Notes: generated by a model from the letters alone, not told the origin. Positions 4,336 to 11,774 are shown, counted from the stretch's first letter. The stretch: DNA of 48,494 bases from Pirellulales bacterium (GCA_036000185.1 DASYGD010000375.1:1-48494); one strand, 5' to 3'. Numbers and translations are program-made.

Positions 4336-4411
4336 AACAAACCTCGGCTCAATAAGGAAAGGATTGAAGTCTGCCTGCAATCCGTTGAGAAAACGCACTG
4401 ACTATCGATAG

Positions 4412-4427
4412 TGCAACGGCCGTGCCA
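4412..4427 (-). promoter_or_regulatory. sigma54 (-24/-12) promoter candidate TGGCACG-GCCG-TTGCA (perfect consensus)
   Basis: The reverse complement of 4412-4427 reads TGGCACGGCCGTTGCA. It starts 12 nt after the ANTAR gene stop and ends 76 nt upstream of the ATG at 4335. Confidence 0.6.
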
Positions 4428-4439
4428 CGTCATCGCTGC

Positions 4440-5039
4440 TCAACCTTCGGCCGCCGGACGGATCGCCTTTTCAATCGCTAAAACGGCCTCGGCGGCAGCG
4501 ATGAGCTTCAGGTTTTTATCGGCGGCGAACGTTTGCAGACGGCGGAAGGCCGCGCGCTCATCGATGCCCGCGACCTTCATCAGCACGCCTTTGGCCTGCT
4601 CGATGATCCGCCGGTTAGCCAACGCCAGTCGTAAGTCGACGGCCTCCTGACGCAGGGCCTGTAAGTCGGCAAAACGGTGCATGGCGAGCGCGATGGCGGG
4701 CTCCAGGGCGGCTTTGCCGATCGGCTTGACCAAGAACGCCAGCACATGGTCCGTCTCCGCCCGTTGGATCAATTCCGCGTCGTGGTAGGCGGATATCAAG
4801 ATAATGGGCGTCGGGCGTTCGCTGCAGATCGCCGCCGCAGCCTCGATCCCGTCCATGTCGGGCATTTTGATGTCGGTGATCACCAGGTCGGGGCTGAGCG
4901 TGCGGCAGTGCTCGGCCAACTCGCGCCCATTCTCCGCCGCCGAAACCACTTGATGGCCGAGCAAGGGGAGCATGCGCTCGAACCAATCTCGCATATCGGC
5001 TTCGTCGTCGGCCACGGCAACCCGTAACGGTCCGCTCAT
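4440..5039 (-). CDS. Response regulator with ANTAR RNA-binding output domain (PdtaR/AmiR-like)
   Basis: REC domain (VAVADDEADMR...ITDIKMPDMDG) is followed by an ANTAR-type helical domain (LALANRRIIEQAKGVLMKVAGIDERAAFRRLQTFAADKNLKL). The start overlaps the upstream kinase stop by 4 nt. Confidence 0.9.
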   Translation of the reverse strand: MSGPLRVAVADDEADMRDWFERMLPLLGHQVVSAAENGRELAEHCRTLSPDLVITDIKMPDMDGIEAAAAICSERPTPIILISAYHDAELIQRAETDHVLAFLVKPIGKAALEPAIALAMHRFADLQALRQEAVDLRLALANRRIIEQAKGVLMKVAGIDERAAFRRLQTFAADKNLKLIAAAEAVLAIEKAIRPAAEG

Positions 5040-6493
5040 TCCAATTCCCTGGGCAAGATCACAATCATCTCCGCGCCTGGCCCCGAGTGGTCGCTCACTT
5101 CGATCAGGCCGCCGTGCGATTGCACAATCCGTCTAGCAATTGCCATGCCAAGGCCCGTGCCTCTGGTTTTGGTGGTATAGAACGGCTCAAAAATGCGCTG
5201 GCGCTGTTCGAGGGCCATTCCCGATCCGTGATCGCGAAAGGCGATGCGCAGCGCCATTCGTCCTTCAAGCCGGGCCGCACCGCAACGGACGATGATCCGA
5301 TCGCCGCCCGGCGTCGCACTCAACGCATTCTCCAAGATATTGCGAAACACCTGACCGATGGCAAAGCGGTCCACGCGGCAACTGAAGTCGTCGCCTTCGA
5401 CTTGCTCCAACAATTCGACTGGCTTCTCCTGATTGGGCTGCACTAGGTGCGACCAAATTTCGCGCCAAAGGCGTTGCAGGTCGCAAAGGTCGCGCTTCAG
5501 GTTGATCGGCGCCGCATAGCCGCGCACCTCTTCGTACAGGCGGTAAAGGTGCTCTTGCGCGTCCTCGATCCGCCGCACTAAGTCGAGCGCCTCCGGTCGG
5601 TCTTCGACTTCCAGCGCGAGCATTTCTAGGCACGCCTTGCTGCGCTGCAAGGCGTTGCGACTTTCGTGCGTCAAGCCGGCCATCATCTCGCCGATGGCCG
5701 CCAGCCGCTCGGCTTGCAGCGTTTTGCGCTGGGCGTCGTTAAGTTCGGTGATGTCGTGGCCGATGGCCAGAACGGCGCCTTGGCCGTCGAAATCGTCGAG
5801 CACCGCCGCATTCCAGACGATCGTACGGCGCATGCCGTTTTTGCACGCCATCGCGCCTTGCACGCCCCGAGGCGCTTTCGCGCGCGAACTGGCGTCGATC
5901 ATCCGTTGGATAAGTCGCTGGCGTGCGGGTTCCTCGACGAATACTGTCGTGAAATCGCGCCCTCGGACCTCATCGATGGAAAAGCCGGTCAGCTCTTCGG
6001 TGAAGGGATTCAGATACAAGATGGCGCCGTCGATCCGCAAGATGACGATCATCGAAGGGGCCGCTTCGACCAGCGTGCGAAAGGCGGTTTCGCTGCGGAG
6101 CTTGGCCTGCGTCAACCGCCGCCGCTCCGCGGACAGGCCCATTCGGGTCCGCAACGCGGCAGGGCTGATAGGCTTGACGATGTAGTCGACCGCTCCGTTG
6201 CGAATGGCCGCGATGGCTCCGTCTAGATCGGCGAGGCCCGTGGCGACGATCACGTCGGCCTCCGGCGCAAGCCGCTTGAGCCGCGGCAGCAGTTCTTCGG
6301 CGCTGCCGTCGGGCAATTGCCGATCGAGGATCACCACGGCGACCTCCGCCCAGTTGCGGCCAGCGAGCGCTTCGCGCATCGTGCCGACCGCGTCAACTCG
6401 GTAACCGTCCAAGGCGAGGATGTCGCGGAGGTTCCCCCGCGTATCTTCGTCGTCCTCCACTACCAGTACCGTCATCGCGGCCGATTCAGCCAT
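5036..6493 (-). CDS. Hybrid sensor kinase: REC-PAS-HisKA-HATPase_c
   Basis: N-terminal receiver (VLVVEDDEDTRGNL...ILDRQLPDG), a PAS-like segment, H-box AGLTHESRNAL and an ATPase domain (DHGSGM, GTGLGMAIA). Confidence 0.9.
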   Translation of the reverse strand: MAESAAMTVLVVEDDEDTRGNLRDILALDGYRVDAVGTMREALAGRNWAEVAVVILDRQLPDGSAEELLPRLKRLAPEADVIVATGLADLDGAIAAIRNGAVDYIVKPISPAALRTRMGLSAERRRLTQAKLRSETAFRTLVEAAPSMIVILRIDGAILYLNPFTEELTGFSIDEVRGRDFTTVFVEEPARQRLIQRMIDASSRAKAPRGVQGAMACKNGMRRTIVWNAAVLDDFDGQGAVLAIGHDITELNDAQRKTLQAERLAAIGEMMAGLTHESRNALQRSKACLEMLALEVEDRPEALDLVRRIEDAQEHLYRLYEEVRGYAAPINLKRDLCDLQRLWREIWSHLVQPNQEKPVELLEQVEGDDFSCRVDRFAIGQVFRNILENALSATPGGDRIIVRCGAARLEGRMALRIAFRDHGSGMALEQRQRIFEPFYTTKTRGTGLGMAIARRIVQSHGGLIEVSDHSGPGAEMIVILPRELE

Positions 6494-7220
6494 GCGTCGT
6501 CAAGCTCCTCAAAATCTCCAACAGCCTTGGGATGTCGAACGGCTTATAGCACGCGGCGTCGGCGCCGCTCGCCAGCGTTTGTTCGACGAGCTGCTCCATT
6601 TCGCCGCACAGTCCCGTGATCAGCACTGTGCGGGCTTGCGGATTAGCCTGTCGCACCAAGCGGAAAACGTCGGCCCCGCCGCCGTGTGGCAGTTTCATGT
6701 CGATCAACACGACGTGGTGCGAGCGCTGGCCCAATCGCGCGGCGGCTTCGGGCGGATCGTGCGCCAACGCGACGCGATAGCCCCGCTCGCGGAGCAGATT
6801 CCAAAGCGATTGGCAAAGATCGCGATCGTCGTCGACGATCAGCAGAAGTGGCTGTTCGACGGCTTCGTCCAGCAACGCCAGCAGCTTCGGCAACTCGACC
6901 GGTTTCGACAGAATCCGCCAGGCGCCGGCGGCGAGAGCTTCGCTTGCGGCGTTGCTGCTGGCATAGGCGGTGACGACAATGGCCACCGTGTCCGCCTGCA
7001 AGTGCTTGATGCGTCGATAGAGTTCGATCCCGTCCATACCCGGCATTTTCAAATCGAGAATCGCCGCGTCGTAGGCATGCTGCTTGATCAACTCGAGCGC
7101 GCTGGTTCCATCGTAGGCCGCATCGACTTGGTAGCCGACATCGGTCAGGATGTCGGACAGGTTGGCGCAGGTATCGGCATCGTCATCGACGACCAATAGG
7201 CGAGGTTTGCTGTCGGCCAT
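6486..7220 (-). CDS. Dual receiver-domain protein (REC-REC), no output domain
   Basis: Two tandem CheY-like domains (LLVVDDDADTCANL...ILDLKMPGMDG and LLLIVDDDRDLCQSL...LIDMKLPHGGG). Overlaps the downstream kinase gene by 8 nt. Confidence 0.85.
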   Translation of the reverse strand: MADSKPRLLVVDDDADTCANLSDILTDVGYQVDAAYDGTSALELIKQHAYDAAILDLKMPGMDGIELYRRIKHLQADTVAIVVTAYASSNAASEALAAGAWRILSKPVELPKLLALLDEAVEQPLLLIVDDDRDLCQSLWNLLRERGYRVALAHDPPEAAARLGQRSHHVVLIDMKLPHGGGADVFRLVRQANPQARTVLITGLCGEMEQLVEQTLASGADAACYKPFDIPRLLEILRSLTTHG

Positions 7221-7266
7221 GCCCGGAAACGTCTCCTCTCAGGGCGGATGAAATCTGGCGCCGGAA

Positions 7267-8442
7267 TCAAGCGGGCTGCGTTCGCCATGCGGCGGACAGT
7301 CGAACGGTAAAGCGGCTTCCGCTGCCAAACTCGCTGGCGACTTGCAGTTGCCCGCCGTGCTTGTCGATAATCGAGCGCGTGATCGGCAGACCCAGGCCGA
7401 TGCCGCGGGCTTTCGTCGAATAAAGCGGCTCCATGATTCGTCCCAGGCTTTCTCGAGGGATTCCGACGCCCGTATCGGAGATCGTCACGGCCACGTCTTG
7501 CTCAGCTTGCTGCGCCGCGATCGCAATCAAGCCGCCATTGGGCATCGCATCCCGCGCGTTGCGCAAGAGGTTGCTGAAGACGATCTGCAACTGCCGTGCA
7601 TCGCCCAGCACTGGCGGCAATTGGGCCGCGTAATCGAATGAGACGGTGATACCCGCCGGCAATGGATTCAACTCCAAGACCTCGCCGATGCACGTTTCGA
7701 CGCAGACGGGATGCAACTCGGGCGCGGGCAGGCGGGCGAAATCGGATAAGGCTGTAATCACCCGGTCGGCCAGGTCGATTTGCCGTTCGATTCGCTCAAG
7801 GTGTTCCCGCGTCTTGTCTGCGGACGGCGTCTTGGCATTCAACAGATAATACGCCGAAGTTTTGACCGCATTCAACGGATTGCGCAGTTCGTGGGCCACG
7901 CCGCCCGCAACCTGGCCGATGGCCGCCAGCCGATCGCTGCGCTGTTGTCGCTGGCTGAATTCGGTTTGGTAAGCGTCTTGAATGATCGCTAGGTCGAGAT
8001 CCAAAAGCGCATTGAGCGATGCGAGCACCGCCAAAAGCCGGCGATCGTCGCCCGTCCAGGCACGCTCCAGAGTTCGCAGCAGATGTCGACGCAAGCGAGA
8101 CAGCGCGGCGCTGGTAAAGACCTGCGAGAGCCCGATTTCCACGTGTCTCAAACCCACGCGCCAGCGGCGAGAAACGTATTTCTTGTCGTACTCGCCGGAA
8201 ACCAAGTCGCGCAACCAGTCGCCGAGCGTTTTTTTCAACCTGGCGACTTGCTCGGCCCCACCGGTGATCACCTTGCAAGCGTCCGGATGGCGGCCGATCT
8301 CCTGATAGAAGTCATCGATGATGTCGACGATATGCGGTTCGATCAGATCGGCCACGCCCGCGACCCGCAGGGCATCGTCATCGGTCCAGCCGACGTAGCT
8401 CTGTAGTTCCTGATAGAGCTGATAAATCTTCTCACATGGCAT
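7267..8442 (-). CDS. Globin-coupled sensor histidine kinase (protoglobin-type sensor + HisKA + HATPase_c)
   Basis: The N-terminal ~160 aa show the globin-coupled-sensor pattern (DDFYQEI..HP...RLKKTLGDWL..L.SGEYDKKY...RWRVGLRHVEIGL, with a candidate proximal His). This is followed by H-box GGVAHELRNPLNAV and an ATPase domain. Confidence 0.8.
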   Translation of the reverse strand: MPCEKIYQLYQELQSYVGWTDDDALRVAGVADLIEPHIVDIIDDFYQEIGRHPDACKVITGGAEQVARLKKTLGDWLRDLVSGEYDKKYVSRRWRVGLRHVEIGLSQVFTSAALSRLRRHLLRTLERAWTGDDRRLLAVLASLNALLDLDLAIIQDAYQTEFSQRQQRSDRLAAIGQVAGGVAHELRNPLNAVKTSAYYLLNAKTPSADKTREHLERIERQIDLADRVITALSDFARLPAPELHPVCVETCIGEVLELNPLPAGITVSFDYAAQLPPVLGDARQLQIVFSNLLRNARDAMPNGGLIAIAAQQAEQDVAVTISDTGVGIPRESLGRIMEPLYSTKARGIGLGLPITRSIIDKHGGQLQVASEFGSGSRFTVRLSAAWRTQPA

Positions 8443-8465: not shown

Positions 8466-8502
8466 CAAACAAAAAAGCCCGCCAGCCACGAAAATGGCTT
8501 GC
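8466..8502 (-). terminator. Terminator-like hairpin plus U6 tract inside the 5' leader of the globin-kinase operon (possible attenuator)
   Basis: Minus-strand RNA reads GCAAGCCA-UUUUCG-UGGCUGGC (7 of 8 pairs), then GGGC-UUUUUU-G. The U tract ends about 28 nt before the ATG at 8442. Confidence 0.3.
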
Positions 8503-8644
8503 GAGCTTGGTTCGATGAATCCGCGGGACGATCCGTCGCGAGCCGTCCGAATCCAACGATTGTAAACCATCACGATCATCTGCGAAAGTAGGATGAATGC
8601 TCCCATTCAATAGGCGAGATCCACGCGCCAGTGCCGGAGCCGAG

Positions 8645-8673
8645 TTGACAGACGCCCCGCGCCATCTTAGATT
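8645..8673 (+). promoter_or_regulatory. sigma70-like promoter candidate TTGACA-17-TAGATT
   Basis: Read directly. It lies 20-35 nt upstream of the candidate starts of the REC-only regulator. Confidence 0.3.
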
Positions 8674-8692
8674 GGCCGCGTGGGATGAACTC

Positions 8693-9172
8693 ATGGAAGG
8701 GCGCGTCATGGATCACGTCTGTAAGCTGCTGCTGGTGGACGACGACAAAGAGTTCTTGGAGATCGTCCTGCGGCGCTTTGCACGTTGCGGCGTCTTGGCC
8801 GCCGGAGCGACGAATCCCGAAGCGGCCCTGGATGCCGCCGACCGGCAGGAATTTCATGTGGCCGTCCTCGATCGATCGCTGCCGGGGCTGGACGGGATAG
8901 AACTCATGGTCCGCCTGCACGATCGCCGCCCCGAATTGCAGGTGATTTTGCTGAGCGGGCATGGCGACGAGCAGGCGATCGCCCTGGCCCGCGACTGCGG
9001 CGCGTTTGATTATTTGGTCAAACCCTGTTCGCTGTCCGACCTGGAAACCGCGGTGTCGGCCGCATACCGGTCGGCGAACCAATCTCCGCGGCAAAGCCCC
9101 GCGCTTTCCGGCGTAACGGACGTTCGCGGCCGCGCCGCGGTCGCCGCGCCGGCGCCCCCACCGGAATTCTGA
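8693..9172 (+). CDS. Stand-alone receiver (CheY-like) response regulator with a Pro/Ala-rich tail
   Basis: KLLLVDDDKEFLEIV...VLDRSLPGLDGIEL...DYLVKP. The start is either 8693 or 8708; the ORF-track start at 8597 is unlikely. Confidence 0.8.
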   Translation: MEGRVMDHVCKLLLVDDDKEFLEIVLRRFARCGVLAAGATNPEAALDAADRQEFHVAVLDRSLPGLDGIELMVRLHDRRPELQVILLSGHGDEQAIALARDCGAFDYLVKPCSLSDLETAVSAAYRSANQSPRQSPALSGVTDVRGRAAVAAPAPPPEF

Positions 9173-9933: not shown

Positions 9934-11127
9934 TCACGCGGGCAGACGCCCTTTCAAGTTGTTGGCATTAAACGGCCCTGGCTCGGCGATCAACCGCCGC
10001 GCCGCTTCTACCTGTTCCCACACGTTCCAAAGCAGCGCGCCGCGGACGCGGCCGTCTCGCAAGTAGTAAATCACCCCCTTGCGATACGGGTTCTGCCAAT
10101 CGGCCACGGTCTCCAACCGCGAGTCGGTCTCGCCGACTGCCTCGTATCCAAGATCGAACAGGTCGGAGTAAAAGAAGGGAAGATGATCGTAGACGACGGT
10201 CTGGCCCGCCATCGCCAAGCCTGCCAGCCGGCCCATCGTGTTGGCGTTGTCTTCGTGCTCCACGCGAAGACGTTGACCGAGGAGCGGGTTGTGAAAGTTA
10301 GCCACGTCGCCCGCGGCATAAATATCGGGATGGCTGGTACGCAGCGAGGCGTCGACCACGATGCCGTTTTTTACGTCCAGCCCCGCCGACAGTGCAAGCT
10401 CGACGTTCGGCCGAATGCCGATGCCCGCCACCACGCCATCCGCCGCCAGTTCCTGCTCGTTCTCATCGTGAACGTCGCGGACCTTCAGAATCGGCTGACC
10501 GGACCGCATCTCCAGGCCGGCGATCAACCTTTCCGGTACGATTTCGACGCCTTTTTTCCGGTAATAATCATTCAGGTAATCGACCAAGTCGCGCGGGAAG
10601 ATACGGCTGCCGATACCGGCCTCTGGGAAAACCATCGTCACTCGTTTGCCGTTCATGGCCAGCGCCGCGGCGATTTCGGAACCGATGAAGCCGCCGCCGA
10701 TGACCGCGAAATGCCGCCCTCGGGCGGTCTGGTCTCGGAGGCGTTGATAATCATCCAGCGTGCGCAAGTAAATAATGTGTTCGCCGCCGAACATGAAACG
10801 CCGCGGCGTGCCGCCCGTGGCCAAGAGCAGTTTGTCATAGCCATACACGGTCTCCTGGTCGTCGGTGACGCGCTTGTTCGCTGCATCCAGGCGCTGGGCG
10901 CTCCTCCCCAGGTGCAGGATCGCACCGTGGTTTTCGGTCTTGCGCCAGATTTTCTCCAGCGGCGTGTCTTTCCACAGCCCTTTTGTCAAGGGTGGGCGGT
11001 TGTAGGGCGGATGCGTTTCGGCGCCAATCAATCCGATGGGACCGCTGGTGTCGACCTCGCGGATACCCCGCACTGCGGCCGCAGCCGCCATCCCGCCGCC
11101 CACGATCAGATAATTGTAGTCAGGCAT
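9934..11127 (-). CDS. FAD-dependent pyridine nucleotide-disulfide oxidoreductase (AIF / ferredoxin-reductase-like)
   Basis: Two Rossmann GxGxxG motifs (LIVGGGMAAAAA; AVIGGGFIGSEIAAA) and AAGDVA. The likely start is MPDYNY at 11127, with GGAGAAAA upstream. Confidence 0.9.
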   Translation of the reverse strand: MPDYNYLIVGGGMAAAAAVRGIREVDTSGPIGLIGAETHPPYNRPPLTKGLWKDTPLEKIWRKTENHGAILHLGRSAQRLDAANKRVTDDQETVYGYDKLLLATGGTPRRFMFGGEHIIYLRTLDDYQRLRDQTARGRHFAVIGGGFIGSEIAAALAMNGKRVTMVFPEAGIGSRIFPRDLVDYLNDYYRKKGVEIVPERLIAGLEMRSGQPILKVRDVHDENEQELAADGVVAGIGIRPNVELALSAGLDVKNGIVVDASLRTSHPDIYAAGDVANFHNPLLGQRLRVEHEDNANTMGRLAGLAMAGQTVVYDHLPFFYSDLFDLGYEAVGETDSRLETVADWQNPYRKGVIYYLRDGRVRGALLWNVWEQVEAARRLIAEPGPFNANNLKGRLPA

Positions 11128-11232
11128 GGTTTTCTCCGGAGTCAGAAGTTTCAACCAGCTCCTCGCAAGCCGAGCGGCGCGAGCGAGTATCCCATGAATT
11201 CACTTGAAGGGCGGGACGCTTGTTCGGAGCGA

Positions 11233-11586
11233 CTACTTCGGTTCCAGCGGCCCGTCTACGGATTGCCACGCATCGAGGCCTCCCTGAAGAGCGTACGCCT
11301 GTTGACAACCTTCTTGGCGGATGATCTGCGCCGCACGGGCGCTATTTTGCTCGCGCGGTCACGTTCAGTAAAACGCCGTGATCCGGCCATCCAGCCACGA
11401 CGGGTCGATGCGCCACTCGGCCGGCCGCACACGCACGGCCCCTGCGATCTTGACGGAACTCGATTCCCACGCCTTGTCGTTCCGCACGTCCACGATCGTA
11501 ATCGGCGCGCCGGATGCCAAATGCTCCTTGAGCTCATCGGCGCTGATCAGGCAATCCTCGTCCGGAAGCTTTTGCATCGCATTCAT
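11233..11586 (-). CDS. Single-domain rhodanese-like sulfurtransferase containing two in-frame TGA codons (candidate selenocysteines) in the active-site loop
   Basis: MNAMQKLPDEDCLISADELKEHL...GRITAFY-TGA-T-TGA-PREQNSARAAQIIRQEGCQQAYALQGGLDAWQSVDGPLEPK-TAG. One frame runs throughout. RBS GAGGAGGG precedes the ATG at 11586. The ORF track truncates it at 11365. Confidence 0.6.
11328..11342 (-). other. SECIS-like hairpin candidate GCGCC-CGUGC-GGCGC downstream of the two UGA codons
   Basis: A 5-bp GC stem with a pentaloop that has G at position 2. It starts 22 nt and 16 nt after the first and second UGA. This is a loose match to bacterial SECIS geometry only. Confidence 0.3.
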
Positions 11587-11774
11587 GATTTCCCTCCTCT
11601 TTTGATAGGCCAAACATGCGCCGCAGAACTCTCGACCGCAGCGCTGGCGAACCCTGCACCTGTGCAACTACCGCGCCTTTAGTCAGATCGCGAAACCCGA
11701 AAGCCACAAGGCTAGCAACGGACCATCCCATTGTTGCGGTGGGTGGGCGATGCCTTCGTCGGCGCAAGCCGACG

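Follow-up and report, generated by a model that had tools for sequence, protein, structure and literature searches.

How does a bacterium connect a kinase that carries a haem-globin domain to a response regulator whose output domain is expected to bind RNA? The question is raised by four genes on the minus strand of a 48,494-nt contig (GCA_036000185.1, DASYGD010000375.1:1-48494; the window, by which we mean this whole stretch), which belongs to a metagenome-assembled genome of a Pirellulales bacterium (G000; 6.5 Mb, 1099 contigs, 89.7% complete). A first-pass annotation, made by a model from the sequence alone, had recognized the four genes, had read them as a path in which a globin signal runs through two kinases and four receiver domains into an ANTAR domain, and had called the architecture uncharacterized. 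We arrive at a different wiring. In our reading, to which we give a probability of about 0.7, the genes encode an oxygen-sensing kinase cascade of the Nmp type in which an RNA-binding regulator has taken the place of the usual output. The genes, abbreviated U, T, S, and R, are as follows:

7267 to 8442, minus strand: U, a globin-coupled histidine kinase of the NmpU/AfGcHK type, 391 amino acids (Pfam Protoglobin, PF11563, 4.7e-33; HisKA 2.1e-11; HATPase_c 8.1e-24)
6486 to 7220, minus strand: T, a dual receiver of the NmpT type, 244 amino acids, lacking an output domain (two Pfam Response_reg stretches, 1e-50)
5036 to 6493, minus strand: S, a REC-PAS-HisKA-HATPase hybrid kinase of the NmpS type, 485 amino acids (Pfam Response_reg 7.8e-19, PAS 3.5e-12, HATPase_c 3.3e-22)
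4440 to 5039, minus strand: R, a REC-ANTAR response regulator of the PdtaR/EutV type, 199 amino acids (Pfam Response_reg, PF00072, 5.3e-23; ANTAR, PF03861, 1.6e-16)

Open reading frames lie exactly where the first-pass annotation had placed them, in the same order, and the Pfam matches agree with its domain assignments. The ANTAR match of R scores 60.3 bits against a Pfam cut-off of 27.3, and the HisKA match of S is weak (1.1e-3; 19.4 bits, cut-off 26.9). R aligns over its full length to Rv1626/PdtaR (PDB 1s8n, E 1.7e-34) and to 6wsh (E 4.5e-28). The genes are arranged head to tail. A 46-nt gap that contains GAGAGGAG (7240-7233) precedes the REC-REC gene, 8 nt are common to the stop of T and the start of S (ATGGCTGA, 6493-6486), and 4 nt to the stop of S and the start of R (ATGA, 5039-5036); both overlaps had been reported at first pass and are read directly in the sequence, and two related loci (L127 and L128) repeat them identically. 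All four receivers, including both in T, retain the acceptor Asp, the Thr/Ser (Thr in both receivers of T), and the Lys, with the acceptor Asp of R lying within ITDIKMPDMDG, and the H-box His is retained in both kinases.

The sensor is the best-defined part of U. Its residues 9-160 align without gaps to the globin domain of AfGcHK, from Anaeromyxobacter sp. Fw109-5 (PDB 5ohe; E 1e-24, 35% identity). Tyr46 and His100 of U fall, with no gaps between them, on the residues that we take to be the haem contacts of AfGcHK, distal Tyr45 and proximal His99. These two residues and the H-box His184 (in AHELRNPL) are invariant across eight orthologues. The alignment supports U as a haem-globin kinase, with haem binding predicted, and its gene is linked to that of an ANTAR response regulator; the haem-globin input proposed at first pass is thereby supported, as is its coupling to an ANTAR regulator in the genetic sense. 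The likeness to AfGcHK extends to the HisKA/HATPase kinase that follows the globin and to a partner protein with two receivers, but just the first two genes correspond, and no study of a kinase or output downstream of AfGcHK is known to us. AfGcHK is switched on when O2 binds its Fe(II) haem (PMC8697598).

For the first three genes, counterparts in the same order are found in Myxococcus xanthus: nmpU encodes a protoglobin kinase, nmpT a protein with two receivers, and nmpS a hybrid kinase with an N-terminal receiver (PMC6211767, PMC11841059). As the published summaries of that system describe it, epistasis and in vitro phosphotransfer identify NmpU as the kinase for the first receiver of NmpT, which forms a side branch, and for the receiver of NmpS, which is off once phosphorylated there; the NtrC-like NmpR is phosphorylated by NmpS, drawing on ATP, and not by NmpU (PMC6211767, PMC11841059). 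The two systems also resemble each other in the specificity residues common to T-REC1 and S-REC, in neighbour or regulon themes (USP, CBS, cbb3 oxidase, and hemerythrin), and in an operon that apparently controls itself. They differ in output, which is REC-ANTAR here and an NtrC-like sigma-54 activator in Nmp; in the position of the regulator gene, which is translationally coupled to the second kinase here and lies a few genes away in Nmp; and in candidate autoregulation, which here would act at a leader terminator and not at an enhancer-dependent promoter. A Planctomyces genome with nmpSTU homologues had already been mentioned in 2018 (PMC6211767, as summarized there). The supposed novelty of the architecture therefore does not hold for U, T, and S, whose counterparts have been worked out genetically and by phosphotransfer, and does hold for the ANTAR endpoint, which alone within the architecture is new relative to Nmp and AfGcHK; our literature searches joining ANTAR with globin-coupled sensors or with Planctomycetes returned nothing relevant.

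Receiver specificity, read at the five alpha-1 positions equivalent to Spo0F 14, 15, 18, 21, and 22, is consistent with the Nmp wiring. The residues of T-REC1 and of S-REC are DTNDI in 11 loci, the window and ten others, and in one divergent locus (L142) they change jointly (DMGRI and DMGRL). Those of T-REC2 are DLSNL, and those of R, DMWRM, match neither T nor S. Because T-REC1 and S-REC match and R differs, the residues argue that one kinase, U, would serve T-REC1 and S-REC and the other, S, would serve R. The summary of the Nmp work reports likewise, with specificity residues common to the first receiver of NmpT and the receiver of NmpS and distinct from NmpR (PMC6211767).

The same residues bear on a linear phosphorelay, U to T to S to R, in which S would be a phosphotransfer station and not an ATP-using kinase. 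Four genes that are presumably co-transcribed and translationally coupled, with four receivers and two His-containing DHp domains, could be laid out for such a relay. The cassette, however, encodes no Hpt or Spo0B-type phosphotransferase in any of its four proteins by Pfam, the HATPase_c domain of S is complete, and a common specificity of T-REC1 and S-REC is what parallel substrates of one kinase would have, not successive steps. In the Nmp system, as far as the published summary goes, NmpS autophosphorylates, its D59A mutant is more active, and neither its own receiver nor NmpT is its substrate (PMC6211767). The globin-kinase fusions described below lose T and keep R. We hold the linear relay to be highly improbable. 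The first-pass path through two kinases and four receivers is likewise not what the homologous system suggests, in which the pathway is branched, phosphorylated S is off, and S uses ATP; by that analogy a two-tier kinase cascade that branches and inverts the sign of the signal would seem the apter description of the cassette.

In three loci the globin is joined directly to an S-type kinase core, which bypasses the first kinase and the dual receiver T. In genome G003 (L093), the DHp boundary is the junction between a globin with 59% identity to that of U and an S-type kinase core with 52% identity, and the fused gene has a 4-nt overlap with a gene for a REC-ANTAR protein that shares 56% identity with R. 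A like design, with a globin-S-type kinase core beside R, is present in G452 (L214); we note that this fused gene is apparently frameshifted inside its kinase part. The third, in metagenome locus L150, is a globin-PAS-S-kinase fusion with no adjoining R. In a tree of globin domains, the three occupy separate, supported positions: the G452 globin is sister to that of the cassette in L130 (100/98), the G003 globin lies inside the clade of family f4 (97/93), and the L150 globin lies near the window's clade. Such positions indicate that the cascade has collapsed into a direct globin kinase, by fusion of the globin to an S-type kinase core, at least three times, and the recurrence of these fusions ties the globin signal to that kinase core.

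The cassette itself is conserved. At least 120 homologues of R were found, and among the matches listed all are at least 68% identical; the closest homologues come from metagenome-assembled genomes labelled Pirellulales or Planctomycetia. The four genes are kept together in 11 other loci, as the first-pass annotation had proposed to check: four of four contexts of R homologues, five genomes of the same order, and two metagenome loci (L136 and L132). Each of the four contexts has the Protoglobin kinase, REC-REC, REC-PAS kinase, and REC-ANTAR genes in order with a 4-nt S/R overlap, set in mutually unrelated flanks (nitrite/sulfite reductase; NiFe hydrogenase maturation; Usp, CsrA, and a receiver; cbb3 oxidase and CsrA). 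The order of globin kinase, REC-REC, and REC-kinase hybrid recurs in more than 20 loci. In 2 of the 11 other cassette loci (L132 and L250, the latter in G460), the R gene is interrupted. Frameshifts or in-frame stops in R orthologues were seen in L132, L250, and G473; they may mark decay of the ANTAR output in a few lineages, or alternatively assembly error.

A census based on R covered 81 genomes of the same order, 32 of which encode an R homologue, and 40 flanks were fetched and classified. Five flanks hold the full cassette (G405, G451, G431, G415, and G460), one (G452) holds the globin fused to an S-type kinase core and then R, and 16 more have an S-type kinase core directly upstream of R, so that such a core directly precedes R homologues in 22 of the 40 loci, of which globin cassettes, full or fused, make up 6. 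The sensors of these kinases vary among REC, globin, PAS, and Cache plus PAS; among those checked with Pfam, three carry a Cache-like sensor and PAS (G416, G429, and G444) and two carry PAS alone (G447 and G419). Most of the remaining flanks are without an adjacent kinase match, and the two that were checked (L231 and L230) adjoin a HisKA-REC-Hpt hybrid. Since the S-type core stands upstream of R in so many loci, S and R are a widespread cognate pair, for which U, T, and the receiver domain of S together make up one input module among several. One of the two checked loci, L231, lies in the genome under study (contig C964:3143-7139); its R paralogue, a REC-ANTAR protein 56% identical to R, stands between the HisKA-REC-Hpt hybrid and an NtrC-like regulator 60% identical to the one at 1-675 of the window. 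A HisKA-REC(-Hpt) neighbour of R paralogues recurs in G431 and G451. A single-protein query against a collection of genome contigs returned one close relative only.

The modularity of the S/R pair invites a further alternative, namely that U-T and S-R are two independent systems that share an operon, with S-REC served by another kinase or by none. Pairs of S-type kinase and R do stand alone with other sensors in many loci, and U- and T-like genes occur without R in G173 and G383. Independence would not account for specificity residues that are identical between T-REC1 and S-REC in 11 loci and jointly changed in L142, for a globin that replaced the receiver of S at least three times, or for a U-T-S order that is fixed across Planctomycetota and Myxococcota (the latter according to the summary in PMC6211767). 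We rate two independent systems as quite improbable, and return to the Nmp-type cascade ending in R.

If the cascade ends in an RNA-binding protein, which RNA would it read? The leader of the operon offers a candidate, with the following features:

8526 to 8548, minus strand: P1, a leader hairpin GGACG-GCUCGCGACGGAU-CGUCC with the conserved apex GCUCG-NGA-YGG (covariation; 82.6 bits with covariance model R1)
8466 to 8507, minus strand: an intrinsic-terminator-like element, comprising a hairpin (8507-8476) and a U tract (8476-8466) (fold -60.6 kcal/mol, z -2.9)
8559 to 8586, minus strand: a sigma-70-like promoter match, TTCGCA-16-TACAAT (9/12 positions, consensus scan only)

The terminator begins 18 nt after P1 and ends 24 nt ahead of the start codon of U, and no minus-strand gene ends upstream of it. 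The promoter match would put P1 at the 5' end of the transcript, and by eye a comparable -10-like box lies 8-12 nt before P1 in orthologous leaders. Across eight orthologous leaders, 88% of the cells in the P1 and terminator helices are paired, as against 24-50% with slid partners, and 17 double changes are seen. A covariance model built from these eight leaders identified more than 20 further copies in related loci; in the 34 model matches, 89.6% of cells are paired versus 33-47% in slid controls, where the 34-row alignment was fitted to the model and thus favours pairing. Three model matches without the conserved apex were removed. The family consensus is a freely covarying P1 stem capped by the apex GC-UCG-NGA-YGG-GC, a short spacer, usually a second hairpin (P2), and a terminator with its U tract. 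P2, a hairpin of 3-5 bp that is typically GGCU-AUGAC(A)-AGCC, is present in 19 of 31 copies (shuffled spacers: mean 9.9, maximum 17), with stems of at least 4 bp in 11 (shuffled mean 2.8, maximum 8); its 3' arm is the start of the terminator 5' arm, and the P1 and P2 loop sequences are related (RYGAY). No Rfam family matches in the window at gathering score or in three related loci at E<=1, and a literature search for a planctomycete RNA motif of this kind found no description.

Copies of the element lie 8-192 nt upstream of same-strand genes, with the exception of one that lies 454 nt before csrA in L130. They precede kinase-R operons in the cascade form, in the fused form (L214), and in one non-globin form (L222); a cytochrome c gene that heads a cbb3-type oxidase cluster; HPF, two Hsp20 genes, CBS proteins, and PFK; and cupin, hydrolase, and DUF883 protein genes. 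In seven loci (L129, L130, L213, L214, L138, L215, and L256), genes for a small BON-like protein and csrA, in many cases with a receiver-only gene after them, are divergent from the adjacent cassette and have an element copy of their own in front; at this place the window has a receiver gene (8597-9172) only. In a low-sensitivity scan of the 81 genomes of the same order, true copies were found only in G000, G431, G451, G415, and G452, to which locus searches add G447 and G416. All seven of these genomes encode an R-family regulator, and in the same low-sensitivity scan, after removal of false positives, no true copy was seen in 49 sampled genomes without the R family. Weak model matches in G190, G455, G477, G460, and G003 lack the apex and were rejected; one is a tRNA 3' end followed by a terminator.

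Mycobacteria offer a parallel for this set of genes: the haem gas-sensing kinases DosS and DosT, with DosR, control dormancy-type genes such as Hsp20, USP, PFK, and CBS. The likeness lies in a haem gas-sensing kinase together with such genes. The Dos sensor has a GAF-haem fold, however, and the pathway has a single step and a DNA-binding output that is not homologous to R.

Because the element has an ANTAR-like layout, follows the R family in its distribution, and stands before the operon of R itself, we consider R its most likely reader, gating read-through of the terminator; as a hypothesis we place this somewhat short of an even chance. More tentative still is the proposal that the element is the first example of a hitherto undescribed class of ANTAR targets, with oxygen-gated read-through of its own operon and of a dormancy and hypoxia regulon in relatives.

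Published ANTAR targets consist of two hexaloop hairpins in which the first loop residue is A and the fourth is G (PMC3369931, PMC8164766, PMC8934654), and the second hairpin overlaps a terminator (PMC3369931). No such canonical target emerged from the dual-hexaloop search that the first-pass annotation had suggested, and several further results weigh against an Nmp-type cascade that acts through R on the leader element. Descriptors for A1/G4 dual hexaloops matched twice in the window versus 1-3 times in register-shifted controls, gave only 3-bp candidates in the leaders, and matched 207 times in the whole genome versus 165-235 times in controls, or 10 versus 4-12 times when a T run had to follow. 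The apex and loops of the leader element itself break the A1/G4 rule, the window's own leader has no clear P2, and the leader copy is the only one found in G000 (model R1, nhmmer). The element was not found in the cassette-bearing genomes G405, G460, and G003 or in loci L128, L211, and L250. The gene for another RNA-binding protein, csrA, is a frequent neighbour of the element. On the input side, S carries a PAS domain, not listed for NmpS in the abstracts of the Nmp papers, that could be a second input or alter the logic, and the sign of regulation would be opposite in the fusions if the globin activates the kinase alike in both designs.

Other searches around the leader were also negative. 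By eye and by script, no antiterminator pairing above 3 bp was found in the window's leader; used as a plain pattern, the leader apex gave 266 loose matches in G000 and was not enriched; and a stem-plus-terminator descriptor matched 31 times in G000 versus 27 in the reversed genome. Dual-hexaloop candidates on contigs C1 and C67 of the same genome were judged unconvincing. Among the few strict dual A..G.. hexaloops with a terminator behind them, one lies at C1:263-335, upstream of feoA/feoB-like genes, from a search whose match count was not above controls.

These results leave room for a cascade wired as we favour in which R controls translation or RNA stability at other targets, as has been reported for ANTAR targets in mycobacteria, and the element is read by CsrA or a small RNA, or is a constitutive attenuator. 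Such an arrangement would explain why the element departs from the canonical ANTAR motif, and it could draw on the csrA genes that stand beside the cassette behind element copies in the seven loci named above; actinobacterial ANTAR targets that overlap ribosome-binding sites have also been described (PMC8164766). The position of the element speaks against it, directly before kinase-R operons in several loci, non-globin ones included (L214 and L222), as does the overlap of a hairpin with a terminator arm, which is an ANTAR design (PMC3369931). As for CsrA in particular, it prefers GGA in a loop; the conserved apex is base-paired and has GGG more often than GGA. The window, moreover, retains the element with no csrA nearby. 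Altogether we see this as a serious possibility with the odds moderately against it, and continue with R as the candidate reader of the leader.

The surroundings of the cassette bring in another potential output. Three nearby regulatory genes are listed here:

1 to 675: an NtrC-like regulator, cut by the window edge
705 to 1829: a kinase that adjoins the NtrC-like gene
8597 to 9172, plus strand: a divergent receiver-only gene, 191 amino acids (Pfam Response_reg)

S might signal also, or instead, to the NtrC-like regulator at 1-675, a sigma-54 output of the NmpR type, with R as a secondary branch. Globin kinases adjoin NtrC-like regulators in other loci (G173, G118, and L139), R is followed by an NtrC-like gene in L219, the window's own NtrC-like gene and kinase are 2.6 kb from R, and a sigma-54-type consensus match, TGGCACGGCCGTTGCA (4401-4428, minus strand), lies 12 nt after the R stop. 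The specificity residues of this NtrC-like receiver, AISRA, are unlike those of R (DMWRM), however, which makes it unlikely to share kinase S with R; the gene has its own adjoining kinase at 705-1829; and in every cassette it is R, not an NtrC-like gene, that is translationally coupled to S. We regard an NtrC-type output of S as unlikely, and keep R as the output of the cascade. Elsewhere in the phylum, class-level relatives (G173 and G118) carry globin kinases beside receiver-kinase hybrids and NtrC-like regulators, and one locus (L139) has a globin kinase with both NtrC-like and REC-ANTAR genes nearby. From these NtrC-like neighbours, we conclude that the ANTAR output is a derived state of a lineage.

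The receiver encoded at 8597-9172 reads EFIRR at the specificity positions, again unlike T, S, and R, and a divergent REC-only gene stands beside the cassette also in L129, L212, L213, and L216. Hypoxia- or NO-type neighbours, which the first-pass annotation had mentioned, were found in part: genes for Usp, a RIC/ScdA-type hemerythrin, a Pyr_redox_2 reductase, glycogen phosphorylase, and an MsrPQ-like fusion are present, and the surroundings fit a hypoxia or stress island. The stretch 4401-4428 and the next 12 nt could, in read-through RNA, form back-to-back A..G.. hexaloop hairpins, GUGGC-ACGGCC-GUUGC and ACU-AUCGAU-AGU; given the zero linker and the G-U-rich stems, this pair is probably due to chance. 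The minus-strand Pyr_redox_2 gene at 9934-11154 is well supported, and a plus-strand open reading frame of 499 amino acids that overlaps it (10183-11682, no match in Pfam) is probably spurious.

For the working of the system, we take the direction of phosphotransfer, its sign, and the ligand from homology to NmpRSTU and AfGcHK. U would autophosphorylate while O2 occupies the haem of its globin, and its phosphate would pass to REC1 of T, as a side branch or sink, and also to the N-terminal receiver of S, holding S off. When O2 drops, U would stop and S would lose its phosphate; S would then autophosphorylate from ATP and phosphorylate R, which would dimerize and bind RNA. Phosphorylated R might gate read-through into its own operon by way of the leader hairpin and terminator and, in relatives, could likewise gate the dormancy and hypoxia genes that stand behind copies of the element.

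This picture may be set beside the ANTAR systems EutW/EutV of Enterococcus faecalis and PdtaS/PdtaR of Mycobacterium tuberculosis, which have the same REC-coiled-coil-ANTAR architecture of the regulator, a cognate kinase gene that adjoins it, and a terminator in the controlled leader. The differences are in the input, which here is a receiver phosphorylated under a haem kinase or else a fused globin, and in the RNA: in place of an A1/G4 dual hexaloop, of which none was found here, the candidate is a long hairpin with the apex GCUCG-NGA-YGG, joined in most copies by the short P2, whose loop resembles AUGAC(A).

To the best of our knowledge, haem-globin kinases have been studied biochemically, and the physiological output of one is known in a single organism only, where it is a sigma-54 activator. 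In the cassette described here, that sensing front end is predicted to feed an RNA-binding antiterminator. The comparison across loci shows how freely such parts are re-plugged: the kinase/ANTAR pair is found with many sensors, the Nmp front end is one input module among them, and fusions recur. This provides a natural set of wiring variants with which to ask why a sign-inverting two-tier cascade is used at all. ANTAR regulators are widespread, and as far as we know their RNA targets have come only from Firmicutes, Proteobacteria, and Actinobacteria. The conserved leader element is a concrete, short RNA, a candidate ANTAR target beyond those phyla and a candidate new cis-regulatory RNA attached to an Nmp/AfGcHK-type system with ANTAR output. 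If the cascade does gate read-through by oxygen level through this element, a haem O2 sensor would for the first time be linked to transcription antitermination.

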